A DNA stretch of 63,971 bases from Bacteroidales bacterium (GTDB lineage: Bacteria > Bacteroidota > Bacteroidia > Bacteroidales > UBA7960): the NCBI GenBank assembly GCA_003567625.1, contig PWZB01000136.1, positions 1-63,971 of the forward strand, given 5' to 3'. The notes beneath the pieces are model-generated. The model was not told where the DNA came from, did not search any database, and saw only the letters and a program-made list of their open reading frames with translations. Position 1 is the first letter of the stretch. Each line of letters begins with the position of its first letter. The translations under genes and the position numbers were made by a program. Positions 4,165 to 46,271 of the stretch are shown piece by piece.

Positions 4165-4259
4165 GGGGTTAATATGGTTAATATGGTTAATATGGTTAAT
4201 ATGGTTGGATGGTTATATGGTTATATGGTTATATGGTTGGATGGTTGGTTATGTGGTTT
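4165..4259. repeat. Degenerate ATGGTT-based tandem repeat (9-nt ATGGTTAAT units, then 8-nt ATGGTTAT / ATGGTTGG units)
   Basis: Direct reading: ggttaat atggttaat atggttaat atggttaat atggttgg atggttat atggttat atggttat atggttgg atggttggtt atgtgg. It lies between the convergent ends of parE and the amidase gene. Confidence 0.9.
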
Positions 4260-18629: not shown

Positions 18630-19475
18630 TCAGCCGGTTTTTTTATAAATTTTTTCGTTTTTGTTTATTTCAGTAAATTTATAATAATCTTTACACCATG
18701 ATATATTTTCCATGTTGCCTACAACTAAATAACCATTATAAGCAAGGTTGTTTGCAAACAGCCCTAAAAGCATTTCCTGATATTGCTGAGTGTAATATAT
18801 AAAAATATTCCTGAAAATTATAACATTAAATCCCCTGATTCTTTGGGCATCCTGGTATTTATAAAGGGAAAATTCAATGTTTTCATATATGTCGTTTTTG
18901 ATCCTGAAACCGTTTTTGACAGGTAAGATATGCCTGGAAAGACTGGCTTTCCCTTCATTGAATCTTTGATAATTAGTTTCGCTTATCTCAATATTTTTGC
19001 TTGAATAAACCCTTTTTTCCAGGTTTTGAATAATAAATTGTGAAATGTCTGTTGCCAGGATTTCGGTCTTATGTTTTAAACCGGCTTCGTTTATTATAAT
19101 TGCGGAGGTTATTAACTCTTCTCCTGATGAGCATCCGGGAATCCATATTTTTATTCGTGTATCTTTCTTATCAAGCGAGGGTAACATTTCATCGCGAAAA
19201 TATCGCCAAAATGCAGGGTCACGAAAAAATTCCGTACACTCTACGTTTATATCACTTAAAAACTTTTCAAAAAAAGTTTTATCAGTAATTAACTTGTCGG
19301 TTAAAGTATCAAAACCTTTTAATTCGTTTATTTGCATAGCCCTTATAATGCTTCTTTTGAAGAAAGTTAATGCAAAACAACCCAAGTCAAAACCATGTGC
19401 TGTTTTAATGGCTTCAATAAGATTCCGGATACCTGAAATACTGATCTCTATCTCCTTGCCTAATTCATTATTCAT
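18630..19475 (-). CDS. cheR: CheR-type protein-glutamate O-methyltransferase
   Basis: 281 aa. The N-terminal helical domain contains TEFFRDPAFW. The SAM-binding block is IWIPGCSSGEELITSAI. FNVIIFRNIFIYY is also present. Confidence 0.8.
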   Translation of the reverse strand: MNNELGKEIEISISGIRNLIEAIKTAHGFDLGCFALTFFKRSIIRAMQINELKGFDTLTDKLITDKTFFEKFLSDINVECTEFFRDPAFWRYFRDEMLPSLDKKDTRIKIWIPGCSSGEELITSAIIINEAGLKHKTEILATDISQFIIQNLEKRVYSSKNIEISETNYQRFNEGKASLSRHILPVKNGFRIKNDIYENIEFSLYKYQDAQRIRGFNVIIFRNIFIYYTQQYQEMLLGLFANNLAYNGYLVVGNMENISWCKDYYKFTEINKNEKIYKKTG

Positions 19476-19574
19476 TTGATATGTCTAAGCGAATTCGCAA
19501 CAAATATACTAAAATTATTATTCCATGAATTCAATTATATCCAATAATAATTAAATAGCCTTAACAATGTCATT

Positions 19575-19738
19575 GAATTACGAAAGTTATCGAATTACGA
19601 ATTTATTACGAATATACGAATTACGAATATTAATTCCGATTACCTGCCGACTGCCGATTGCCGATTGCCGACTGCCGACTGCCGACTGCCGATTGCCGAC
19701 TGCCGTCATACCGATTTACCACCCGCCATCCGTTACCC
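19575..19738. repeat. Composite short-tandem-repeat element: TTACGAA-type AT-rich units, a CCGATTACC joint, then 9 x TGCCGAY heptamers (19645..19707) and a C-rich tail
   Basis: Read directly: tgccgac tgccgat tgccgat tgccgac tgccgac tgccgac tgccgat tgccgac tgccgtc. A 7-nt period is incompatible with coding. Confidence 0.9.
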
Positions 19739-19974
19739 TCAATTATAGTTCGTGAATTAATTTGATTACTATTTTTATATCAATTGATCTGAACTTGCTT
19801 ATTGGTCACTACACACTGGCCTTTAGCAATCCTGTATAACATTGCCGGGAGGGTTATCATGGTTATGGTAATTTCTTAAAGTGATTAACTTTGCATTTCG
19901 TACTTATTTTAATAAAAAGGATTTACAGCAAACTGATAATTTTTATTTGCGGATAAAGGATTTTTGTTAATAAG

Positions 19975-37497: not shown

Positions 37498-37724
37498 GAT
37501 TGATATAAACTTTTTAAAGAACGGCAAATATAATAAGTTAAAAAATAAAATAAAACACTGTATTTCAAAAATCAAAGGTGGAGCTATCTTACAGTGAGAT
37601 GTTTTCCAAGCCCTGGAAAACAGGAAAAAAATCTTATTAGCTTAGTAATTTTTTTACTTCATCATTCGTTAATCGTTAATCAATATTCGTTGCCATCTAT
37701 ACCCACTTAAACCTCTGAGGTATA

Positions 37725-38206
37725 GTCATTTCGAACGAAACGCCAGTGGAGTGAGAAATCCCGATATAGAACCGGAAGGCGTTTTAAAAATTTAAACCTT
37801 TTTTTGTGATTGAATAAATTGTCATTTTACATCGGACACATAAATTTAGATCTGAAAATTTTTTAAAGGGAATATGCCGTCTTACAGGCTGAAAGCCTGC
37901 CAGAACAAAGCCCGGGGCAAAGCCCTGTGGTATAAAGCCCCCACATAACCCATCAGCCTGAAGGGCTGAAAGAAAATTAGTCTTCTCCACGAGACCCTTC
38001 ACTCCGCTATCGCTCCGTTCAGGGTGACAGTGCCATTGGTTATATAGTGGGGAGGGAGCAGCGGCGGCTCAGCCGCCGCTGCTCCCTCCCCCTCTCTATA
38101 AAAACCGCCTGTCATCCTGAGCGAAGCGCCAGCGTAGCGAAGGAACTCGTTGAAGGACAGTCAAAGCCTGACCGAAGCGCCAGCGTAGCGAAGGAACTCG
38201 TTGAAG
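37725..38206. repeat. Cluster of REP-like elements of the GTCAYYYTGA..CGAAGCG..AGCGAAGGAAYTC family (4 copies), plus GC-rich mini-hairpins
   Basis: Copies lie at 37725..37762 (+), 37992..38029 (-) and 38111..38206 (+, two tandem). The tandem pair has an identical 34-nt core cgaagcgccagcgtagcgaaggaactcgttgaag at 38122..38155 and 38173..38206. Mini-hairpins are CAGGCT-gaa-AGCCTG (37885..37899) and CAGCC-tgaag-GGCTG (37954..37968). Confidence 0.8.
38049..38091. repeat. Perfect 43-nt GC-rich palindrome (21-nt arms around a single central C)
   Basis: ggggagggagcagcggcggct c agccgccgctgctccctcccc. The arms are exact reverse complements. Confidence 0.95.
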
Positions 38207-38390
38207 AAAAATTGCAATGAAATTCAAATTACCACTATATTTAAAACAGCAAAAATACCATGCCCGTTCCCTGAAAAAGTAAAAATATCAATCTCTCTCA
38301 AAACACTAAATAACTAAAACCTTACGTTAAGCAAAAGAGCAACTGTATAATGGTGACGGGTTTACCCCGTTGGATTTATTTTTATCCAGG

Positions 38391-38518
38391 GGTGACGGGT
38401 GACGGGTGACGGGTGACGGGTAACGGGTAATCAGTAATCGGTATATTGTATTCTTCGTAATTCGTAAATTCGTAACAGATTCGTTATTCGATACAATAAT
38501 TCTTCGTAATTCGACAAT
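38391..38518. repeat. Composite short-tandem-repeat element: GGTGACG heptamers x4, decaying into GGTAACG / GGTAATC / AGTAATC, then TTCGTAA-type AT-rich units
   Basis: ggtgacg ggtgacg ggtgacg ggtgacg ggtaacg ggtaatc agtaatc (38391..38439), then ttcttcgtaattcgtaaattcgtaacagattcgttattcgatacaataattcttcgtaattcgacaat. It ends 28 nt before the ATG at 38547. Confidence 0.9.
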
Positions 38519-38546
38519 ATCAGAACTTTAAATACATTTTATACGT

Positions 38547-39275
38547 ATGAAAAAAGATGACACTATCCGCCTGAATAAGTACATTGCCAACGCCGGAGTA
38601 TGCAGCCGCCGTCAGGCAGACATTCTTATCAGCACGGGTGCCATCAAGGTCAATGGTAAAGTTGTTACCGAACTGGGAACAAAAATAAAACCCGGTGATG
38701 TGGTTCACTACGACGGTGAACTGCTGAAGCCGGAAAAAAATGTTTATATCTTGCTAAATAAACCTAAAGATTACATCACTACTACCGATGACCCGCGGGC
38801 AAGAAAAACTGTTATGCAACTGGTAAAAAACGCTTCCAGTGAGAGGGTCTATCCCGTTGGCAGGCTTGACAGGAATACAACAGGCTTGCTGTTGCTGACC
38901 AATGACGGCGAGATGGCCAAAAAACTAATGCATCCAAAACATGGAAACAAAAAGATCTACCACGTAGTTTTGGATAAAGGTGTTACAAAAGATGATATGA
39001 ATAAAATAGTAAAAGGTGTTAAACTGGAAAATACGACCGTGGCAGCTGACAACATAGCTTATGCCGGCAATGGCCAAACTAAAAAGGAGGTAGGTATCGA
39101 AATACACTCAGGACAAAACCGCGTTGTGAGAAGGATATTCGAAAAACTGGGATATAAGGTCATAAAGCTTGACAGGGAAATGTTTGCAGGATTGACAAAA
39201 AAAAACCTGCCCAGGGGCAAATACCGGTTACTCACTAAAAACGAAATAAATTTTTTAAAAATGAGCTCGGGGTGA
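38547..39275 (+). CDS. Pseudouridine synthase, RsuA/RluB family (S4 domain + catalytic domain)
   Basis: The S4 domain is IRLNKYIANAGVCSRRQADILISTGAIKVNGKVV. The catalytic motif is VYPVGRLDRNTTGLLLLTNDGEMAKKL. Confidence 0.88.
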   Translation: MKKDDTIRLNKYIANAGVCSRRQADILISTGAIKVNGKVVTELGTKIKPGDVVHYDGELLKPEKNVYILLNKPKDYITTTDDPRARKTVMQLVKNASSERVYPVGRLDRNTTGLLLLTNDGEMAKKLMHPKHGNKKIYHVVLDKGVTKDDMNKIVKGVKLENTTVAADNIAYAGNGQTKKEVGIEIHSGQNRVVRRIFEKLGYKVIKLDREMFAGLTKKNLPRGKYRLLTKNEINFLKMSSG

Positions 39276-46067: not shown

Positions 46068-46271
46068 GAGACCACTCTAAAAAGTCCAAAAATATTATTT
46101 CCCGCAGATTTCGCTGATATGCGCAGATTATAAATTCATGATAATCAATTAAATTTATCAGCGAAAATCTGCGATTTACCCTGTTGGATATTTGCTTTTT
46201 ATAAATTCCCGTTTTTTATAAATTTATCCAACGGGGTGAATCTGCGGGAAAACATTTTTTAGAGTAGTCTC
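46068..46271. mobile_element. MITE-like nested-palindrome element (204 bp) with 16-bp terminal inverted repeats and flanking 6-bp direct repeats
   Basis: The left TIR is GAGACCACTCTAAAAA (46068..46083). The right TIR is TTTTTAGAGTAGTCTC (46256..46271), with one mismatch. ACAGAT flanks both ends (46062..46067 and 46272..46277). An internal perfect 13-bp pair is tttcccgcagatt / aatctgcgggaaa, and there are two internal hairpins. No ORF. Confidence 0.55.

Follow-up and report, generated by a model that had tools for sequence, protein, structure and literature searches.

The 63,971-nt stretch analysed here (contig PWZB01000136.1 of the Bacteroidales assembly GCA_003567625.1, positions 1 to 63,971; hereafter the window) carries, directly ahead of a gene for an rluB-type pseudouridine synthase, a composite element of about 200 bp containing tandem seven-nucleotide repeats. 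On balance we favour the view that this element belongs to a genus-specific, modular family resembling the short tandemly repeated repetitive (STRR) sequences, that it represents a solo arm of a cassette otherwise built around a PF05635 gene, and that its insertion truncated RluB, gives the shortened gene its ATG and probably also a promoter, the heptamer arrays themselves being passive. A second copy of the family lies in the window near cheR.

Insertion of the element at rluB

The window is contig C92 of a genome of 2.38 Mb (199 contigs, 37.5% GC), here called G000, which was compared with the sister species G001-G004 (congeners G002, G003 and G004). The RluB orthologues of all four, with open frames of 284-299 residues, bear a Lys-rich N-terminal extension of 40-45 residues. 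In G000 the element at 38346-38546 falls where the aligned sequences of G004, G003 and G002 have a gap, and it stands in place of about 45 nt of the ancestral coding region. The limits of the gap coincide with those of genome-wide repeat coverage, which starts at around 38346 and stops at the ATG. The remnant of the old coding sequence on the 5' side is single-copy in G000 and reads ATG CCC GTT CCC TGA, meeting a stop at codon 5. No element is present in the rluB upstream regions of G003, G004 or G001, while G002 has a short related one (GGGTAAC..leader-like..ATG) ahead of a full-length rluB. Judged by these alignments, the rluB copy is a derived insertion into ancestral coding sequence.

The consequences for the protein follow directly. 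An in-frame TAA at 38529-38531 makes the ATG at 38547 the first possible start and, since the element has also replaced coding sequence, the protein has been truncated and its start codon donated by the element. The alignments thus show that the old RluB N-terminal tail was removed and that no ATG other than the one brought by the element can serve if the S4 domain, which starts at residue 8 of the 242-residue protein, is to be preserved. The initial annotation missed both aspects, the insertion into coding sequence and the origin of the start codon.

Table 1. Features of the rluB-side and cheR-side elements, with positions in the window. Slots S1-S4 are the successive repeat modules described in the text; TRF, Tandem Repeats Finder.
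Feature	Position	Strand	Basis
Native cheR -7 box TATATTTG	19501..19508	-	Conserved in sister species
cheR-side slot S4 (TTCGTAA block), leader module absent	19575..19635	-	Sequence reading, repeat comparison
cheR-side GGTAATCGG joint, S3 (GTCGGCA/ATCGGCA)x8.9, then single S2/S1 units GGTAAATCGGTAT, GGGTAACGG	19637..19740	-	TRF, slot parse
Probable ancestral rluB promoter: TTG, 21 nt, TATATTTA, ending 16 nt 5' of ancestral ATG at 38260	38212..38243	+	Inferred from sequence reading
Decayed remnant of ancestral Lys-rich RluB N-terminal extension	38260..38345	+	Aligns with intact 5' coding sequence of G004/G003/G002 orthologues
Whole inserted composite heptamer element, ~200 bp	38346..38546	+	Alignment gap in G004/G003/G002; repeat-coverage limits
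Nested 32-nt small palindrome TTTACCCCGTTGGAT..ATCCAGGGG	38361..38392	+	Direct reading
Slot S1, (GGGTGAC)x4 + GGGTAAC	38390..38428	+	TRF: period 7, 5.6 copies, 96% matches, score 71
Slot S2, decaying (GGTAATC, AGTAATC, GGTATAT, TGTATTC; 7-nt register kept), including the GTAATCGG joint	38426..38449	+	Direct reading
Slot S4, AT-rich TTCGTAA-type block (TTCGTAA, TTCGTTA, TTCGATA, TTCGACA)	~38451..38516	+	Repeat comparison
Leader module ATATCAGAACTTTAAATACATTTTATACGT	38517..38546	+	Repeat comparison within G000
rluB-type pseudouridine synthase, N-terminally shortened, 242 aa	38547..39275	+	Pfam S4 + PseudoU_synth_2

As Table 1 shows, the element is a chain of distinct modules. Read directly, GGTGACG occurs four times at 38391-38418 and is followed by GGTAACG, GGTAATC and AGTAATC; the GTAATCGG joint lies at 38434-38441, and the -7-like box TACATTTT at 38533-38540, exactly 6 nt 5' of the ATG and with the TTCG of the final S4 unit 19 nt upstream of it. 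Direct reading and TRF thus agree with the initial annotation in the placing of the heptamer array, the AT-rich block and the -7-like box. The span that it gave to the element, 38391-38518, is indeed part of it, but the unit that is repeated and inserted is larger, running from around 38346 to the ATG. Removal of the nested palindrome restores a perfect GGTGACG register. Its family, TTTACCCCGTTRRAT-loop-ATYYAACGGGGTGAA, is found at about 23 loci in G000, mostly nested within heptamer arrays; a palindrome at 46178-46237 of the window, ACCCTGTTGGAT..ATCCAACGGGGT, belongs to the same family and forms the core of an element resembling a MITE (miniature inverted-repeat transposable element).

A structured cis-acting RNA was considered and rejected, the predicted fold of the element being no better than that of shuffles (z = +0.34). 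No Rfam family matched at its gathering score anywhere in the window, and a permissive Rfam search of 37500-38600 and of four sister elements gave sub-threshold noise only.

A modular family with a fixed order of heptamer arrays

The initial annotation had been prepared to see the layout as coincidental should it be confined to the two loci of the window. Genome-wide, however, TTCGTAATTCG is found at 24 sites in G000, merging to around 18 non-coding loci, and nearly all are preceded by G-rich heptamer arrays. The copies share a fixed order: sometimes a palindrome, then S1 (GGGTGAC/GGGTAAC), S2 (GGTAATC/GGTATTC), S3 (of GTCGGCA, GGCAGTT or AGCCGGC type), ATTAAATA, and S4, a run of TTCGTAA units ending in TTCGATA. 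After this comes either a short 'CATTAA' end or the leader CAGAACTTTAAATACATTTTATAC and an ATG; about half of the copies terminate in this 30-nt leader adjoining a start codon. GGTAATC arrays hold the S2 position in other copies too. The modular character first proposed from two loci, with conserved and expandable parts, is therefore a property of the whole family, as several ordered slots.

The seven-nucleotide period is itself in excess. Exact tandem repeats of at least three copies occur at 42 loci for k = 7, compared with 3, 14 and 9 for k = 6, 8 and 9; together with the association of TTCGTAATTCG with G-rich arrays, this excludes chance. TRF reports 321 period-7 rows at a score of at least 30 in G000. 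The canonical units number more than 50, and of 147 period-7 arrays 132 are intergenic, coding sequence making up 84% of the genome. Because 28 of the 398 contig ends of G000 fall within heptamer arrays, the assembly understates the true copy numbers. In one place (C179:21089-21200) an open reading frame (ORF) that by eye is aminopeptidase-like extends into a heptamer element, where the TAA of a TTCGTAA unit terminates it, so that the element there also rewrote the C-terminus and stop codon of a gene.

The second copy in the window lies upstream of cheR (18630-19475, minus strand). Whole-genome BLAST aligns the AT-rich blocks of the rluB and cheR copies with 82% identity over 60 nt (E = 8.5e-10), confirming that this block is nearly the same at both loci. 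The heptamers do differ, as first described, but they are not alternative fillings of a single variable slot: the rluB copy has five S1 units, two S2 units and no S3, and the cheR copy has single S1 and S2 units and nine of S3 (TRF: 19644-19705, period 7, 92% matches, score 103). Given the fixed order of several slots, the slot parse indicates that the two loci differ in which slot has expanded, not in how one variable half is filled. A JGI soda-lake sediment contig carrying cheR has identical sequence on the S4 side and ends inside the adjacent array.

The native -7 box of cheR, TATATTTG, is kept with its surroundings in G002-G004, and the element ends 66 nt 5' of it. The cheR-side element is not present at the orthologous spacer of G002 or G003, and that of G004 contains a leader-type element only, oriented toward the divergent EamA-family gene. 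For these reasons the cheR copy is unlikely to be the cheR promoter.

Orientation relative to genes

In 12 of the 14 copies that could be scored, the S4 module faces the start of a gene; two further loci, mis-assigned by the ORF caller and scored by eye, bring this to 14 of 16 (one-sided binomial p ~0.002). The orientation bias anticipated in the initial annotation therefore exists for the TTCGTAA module, but it does not extend to heptamer arrays in general. Of 75 spacers that contain arrays and are flanked by called genes at both ends, 15 separate convergent genes, and the G-rich strand is oriented relative to flanking genes in a ratio of only 48 to 35. The notion that heptamer arrays as such mark promoters was rejected on these figures.

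These observations bear on whether the arrays, above all the TTCGTAA block just 5' of the -33 position, are binding sites for a regulator, either a transcription factor or an oligonucleotide-binding (OB-fold) protein of cold-shock protein (CSP) or S1 type with one heptamer per domain, so that the element would be a regulatory module. The bias of the TTCGTAA module toward gene starts is what such a role would lead one to expect, as is the presence of a conserved block 35-100 nt 5' of the ATG at several genes; similar proposals have been published for heptamer repeats near start codons (PMC4679880), and modest effects on promoters are reported in Nostoc (bioRxiv 10.1101/2022.06.06.494920). We nevertheless think the idea unlikely. 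At rluB, cheR, pdxA, lepA and holA the sister species have no arrays or arrays of other units, the downstream genes are unrelated in function, units repeated every 7 bp without interruption do not stay in phase with the helix, the genome has dozens of heptamer units unrelated to one another, and arrays are found in convergent spacers as well. A locus-specific regulatory role for the heptamer arrays is probably absent.

The leader module and start codons

G000 contains 18 copies of the leader at up to five mismatches, 14 of which have an ATG 1-3 nt downstream that opens an ORF of 125-777 residues. The adjoining genes, assigned from their N-terminal sequences only, include lepA, pdxA, holA and ridA-like and pncA-like genes. 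More broadly, TAnnTTT[ACT] followed by 6 nt and an ATG is seen at about 40 genes, where the background for any one spacing is about 10, and only about 15 of the 40 are copies of the leader module; canonical TAnnTTTG boxes in G000 are mostly 15-50 nt upstream of the ATG. This pattern points to leaderless or near-leaderless transcripts for a class of genes in the lineage. The fixed 6-nt geometry between box and ATG leads us to infer that the leader is a putative promoter giving a leaderless or near-leaderless mRNA, and the rluB element would in that way overlap the promoter of its gene, as initially supposed.

The arrangement at lepA is especially clear. In G001-G004 the empty site reads ...ttttgcaggctATGAAAAAA with a single ATGAAA; in G000 (C29:8354-8486, L090) a 150-nt element sits exactly at the start, between two copies of ATGAAA, and comprises a palindrome (ATGAAACCCTCAT..ATGAGGGTTCCAT), an 85-nt AT-rich body and the leader. 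Ten such palindrome-bearing elements occur in G000, some with an extra 68-nt loop insert. Duplicated ATGAAA flanks are seen only at the palindrome-bearing lepA element and not at the rluB composite.

Other genes show the same polymorphism between species. An NfeD-like gene with a leader has a G003 counterpart whose protein is 92% identical and which has no element, the junction again falling at ATGAAA. At holA, the leader alone is present in G002 and nothing in G003. The pepA-pdxA spacer contains S3, S4 and the leader in G000 and (GGGCATA)x9 with further heptamers in G004; in G003 and G002 its sequence is not repetitive.

The position of the arrays relative to the putative promoter also bears on whether rluB is a contingency locus, switched or tuned through its promoter context by heptamer copy number or by a (GGGTGAC)n G-quadruplex. 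On the sense strand, 38389-38427 is a candidate quadruplex, fitting the motif of four or more G3 tracts with loops of 1-7 nt, of which (GGGTGAC)4GGGTAACGGG is a canonical example. It is among 25 such motifs in G000, most of them supplied by G-rich heptamers, as against 0-2 in shuffles. GGGAATC heptamers form quadruplexes in vitro (PMC4692102), and arm copy number differs between species at a cassette described below. However, the arrays lie 5' of the putative -33 element, outside the ORF and not between promoter elements, so that a change in their length would alter neither promoter spacing nor reading frame; their distance from the -7 box is at least 30 nt at rluB and 66 nt at cheR. Nor is it apparent what a housekeeping gene such as rluB would gain from switching. 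Switching of this kind seems to us very unlikely.

Association with PF05635 cassettes

PF05635, the '23S rRNA intervening-sequence protein' family, comprises small proteins that form a four-helix bundle. Published relatives of the PF05635 cassettes are the rRNA intervening sequences that code for protein in Coxiella and Leptospira. G000 has five PF05635 genes. Tandem arrays bracket four of them, with clear inverted arm pairs at three (C74, C9 and C76) and a partial pair at C59. The C74 cassette consists of (AACGGGT)x11, cut by the contig end, a leader-like TATATTTTATACAAATG, the gene and (ACCCGTT)x4. That of C9 has inverted GAGGTGA/GTTGTGA arms. At C76:5614-6178 the gene lies between two efflux-operon genes with inverted octamer arms, TGATGGTT and ATCAAACC; the right arm is within the gene that follows, which is HlyD/CusB-like, in its 5' coding region. 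At C59 the arms are CAAATAA and TTATTTG, and an array of the same orientation separates them. ORFs of ordinary size (292, 242 and 230 residues) are also bracketed by inverted heptamer arrays, at C146:1180-2223, C180:44-878 and C59:4947-5800.

The C74 cassette is found at the orthologous site in G002 (C43) and G003 (C73) with 3-4 arm units as compared with at least 11, so that copy number varies at an orthologous locus. The S1 unit of the rluB copy (GGGTRAC) forms the arms at all three of these sites, and in another genus (G019:C3) a PF05635 gene has a left arm of GGTAATC/GGTGATC, which is the S2 unit. Around 85 nt upstream of the G002 cassette gene matches the leader-bearing lepA element at about 85%, by eye. 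Since S1 and S2 units form the arms of PF05635 cassettes, the copies at rluB and cheR are most plausibly solo left arms, or half-cassettes.

The course of events may then be pictured as follows. The family consists of 7-nt arrays, probably prone to slippage, that follow one another in a set order and often have small palindromes nested in them, and the rluB and cheR copies would be half-cassettes derived from a selfish PF05635 cassette family. One such copy entered the 5' coding region of rluB, displaced the Lys-rich tail and gave the gene the only ATG that preserves the S4 domain, these being the steps that the alignments show. It probably also provides a promoter of Bacteroidota type, with the -7-like box 6 nt before the ATG and a leaderless or near-leaderless mRNA, and its arrays would expand and contract by replication slippage.

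A number of points weigh against this scheme. Comparison of filled and empty sites at rluB reveals neither terminal inverted repeats nor a target site duplication, and about 45 nt of the target is lost; a MITE model for the composite element was rejected on the lack of both kinds of repeat. Within 1.5 kb of the two window copies there is no inverted partner arm, and no PF05635 gene is present at either. The promoter is predicted from sequence, the -7-like box TACATTTT is without the terminal G of TAnnTTTG, and the ancestral promoter at 38212-38243, whose geometry fits the Bacteroidota -33/-7 consensus, is apparently intact, and transcription from it might still run through the element. The intergenic and orientation statistics depend on gene calls made with a simple ORF caller of our own (84% coding). 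Finally, the leader is present at only one of the five PF05635 genes of G000 (rough chance ~0.05), so that it could be a separate element that also reached that gene.

This last point can be taken further: the leader and its flanking modules might be an independent small mobile element that targets ATGAAA starts, the arrays being unrelated microsatellites with no link to PF05635. Such an element would account for the lepA copy between two ATGAAA where four sister species have one, and for the ten leader copies that have the palindrome ATGAAACCCTCAT..ATGAGGGTTCCAT in place of heptamer arrays, as well as for the rarity of the leader at PF05635 genes. Set against this, 7-8 leader copies are immediately preceded by ordered heptamer slots, and C74 and its G002 counterpart (C43) unite arm, leader-type upstream region and gene as one conserved unit. 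We regard a wholly independent leader as improbable and retain the half-cassette interpretation.

A bolder form of that interpretation is also conceivable, though we hold it to be doubtful. PF05635-type cassettes might shed half-cassettes that act as portable heads of promoter plus start codon, inserting at or creating ATGAAA, and might thereby have re-headed about 14 host genes, including rluB, lepA, pdxA and holA; the 7-nt period would then be a by-product of the insertion chemistry, for example of repeated 7-bp target duplications amplified by slippage.

Distribution in other genomes

A BLAST search with 38340-38546 finds 22-23 places in each of G002, G003 and G004 and one in G001, with essentially no match among 36 further genomes from the family and order. 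On these searches the repeat family is both genus-specific and genus-wide. Simple heptamer arrays are more scattered: of 400 other Bacteroidota genomes, 6 contain (GGGTRAC)3, and a reversed control pattern is found as arrays in about a dozen genomes, so that heptamer arrays appear sporadic across the phylum.

Across all species, a scan for GGTAATCGG..TTCGTAATTCG gave 43 loci where about 34 are expected by chance on our own estimate; being near chance, the total is informative only for genomes with several matches. These are the soda-lake Bacteroidales metagenome-assembled genomes (MAGs) CSSed10_172R1 and CSSed165cm_83 and one MAG of the Chloroflexota. In the Chloroflexota MAG S1bins75, of high GC, at least five intergenic loci have GGTAATC/GGTAACT arrays running into TTCGTAA/ATTCGCT arrays (for example L035:3190-3300 and L037:1820-1910), so the same heptamers are adjacent in a distant phylum. 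Two metagenome scans for the junctions gave no match, and a protein search for the exact RluB protein found no record.

Mobilisation by an IS200/IS605 transposase or a REP-associated tyrosine transposase (RAYT; REP, repetitive extragenic palindrome) was considered and is unsupported, PF01797 being present in 22 of 25 relatives irrespective of the element. The single PF01797 copy of G000 has end hairpins unrelated to it.

Other repeats in the window

The spacer at 37500-38220, upstream of rluB, is a mosaic of further repeat families. Its 38049-38091 / 38116-38206 region contains a GC-rich perfect palindrome with 21-nt arms and two 40-nt direct repeats (CCTGAGCGAAGCGCCAGCGTAGCGAAGGAACTCGTTGAAG), of which G000 has about ten more copies. 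A sub-threshold match to the Rfam Acido-Lenti-1 RNA lies at 37885-37929 on the minus strand (score 27.1 bits, E = 7.7e-4; the gathering score is 37). At 4167-4246, immediately 3' of a parE-like ORF, is an octamer tandem array, (GGTTATAT)x9.5, with 90% matches.

Comparison with known heptamer repeats

Heptamer repeats of the STRR type have been known since 1990, with no accepted origin or function. The STRR heptanucleotides of heterocystous cyanobacteria were reportedly described by Mazel et al. in 1990, and canonical cyanobacterial units are CCCCAGT, TTGGTCA and CAACAGT. In G000, arrays of TTGGTCA/GACCAAT occur at four loci with up to seven copies, and CCCCAGT and CAACAGT are absent. In both systems 7-nt units stand in tandem, many unit families coexist in a genome, and the arrays are intergenic and often near start codons. 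G000 shares with STRR repeats the head-to-tail 7-nt units, the period-7 excess, the number of units and the intergenic location. Heptamers in Nostoc include the recO repeat GAC(C/T)AAT (bioRxiv 10.1101/2022.06.06.494920), and (GACCAAT)n of G000, a reverse-complement rotation of TTGGTCA, is that same repeat. G000 differs in being a soda-lake member of the Bacteroidota and in having its arrays chained in a fixed slot order that ends in a leader and start-codon module. The initial annotation knew of no described function for this element class. The class itself has been described: repeats of heptamers resembling STRR are on record from cyanobacteria, from Xanthomonas and Beggiatoaceae, and from a few Bacteroidetes (PMC4679880, PMC4692102).

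TAACTGA direct repeats are found in marine Beggiatoaceae, cyanobacteria and five Bacteroidetes (MacGregor 2015, PMC4679880). Like the arrays here, they are intergenic forward heptamers just 5' of start codons with a sporadic phylogeny, are mixed with other heptamers in Bacteroidetes and are missing from the shorter spacers of close relatives. TAACTGA in tandem (at least two copies) is not found in G000, and the repeats nearest the ATG in the G000 elements are instead the AT-rich TTCGTAA units followed by a non-repetitive leader.

The quadruplex-forming GGGAATC and GGGGAYT heptamers of Xanthomonas and Nostoc (Rehm et al. 2015, PMC4692102) likewise form intergenic G3N4 arrays of variable length, sometimes as inverted pairs. 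The unit in G000 is GGGTGAC/GGGTAAC, its array is one slot of a composite, and quadruplexes are known there from the motif only.

Small dispersed repeats are said to be nested in the heptamer arrays of Nostoc (Elhai et al., 2008). The G000 family resembles these, and the enterobacterial bacterial interspersed mosaic elements (BIMEs) and REP sequences, as an ordered mosaic of short repeats in which excision of a nested palindrome (38361-38392) restores the register. It differs from BIME/REP elements in showing no correlation with RAYT/Y1 transposases and in having an outward-facing leader and start module. With the PF05635 cassettes the window family shares arm units and a leader-type upstream region, although the window loci are solo arms fused to host genes, with neither the PF05635 gene nor a partner arm.

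The rluB locus is a clean natural experiment, in which the empty site is kept in sister species and both the truncation and the new start codon are visible, and heptamer arrays can be tied to PF05635 cassettes within one genome. If the leader is an active promoter, a selfish repeat would have been co-opted to restart genes; if the half-cassette reading with 7-bp target duplications is true, it would explain the bacterial preference for heptamer repeats. In practical terms, the arrays break short-read assemblies and confront annotators with spurious ORFs and altered gene ends. Compared with the heptamer repeats already known, what the present family adds is an ordered multi-slot architecture, a leader and start module, and a housekeeping gene re-headed by the element.

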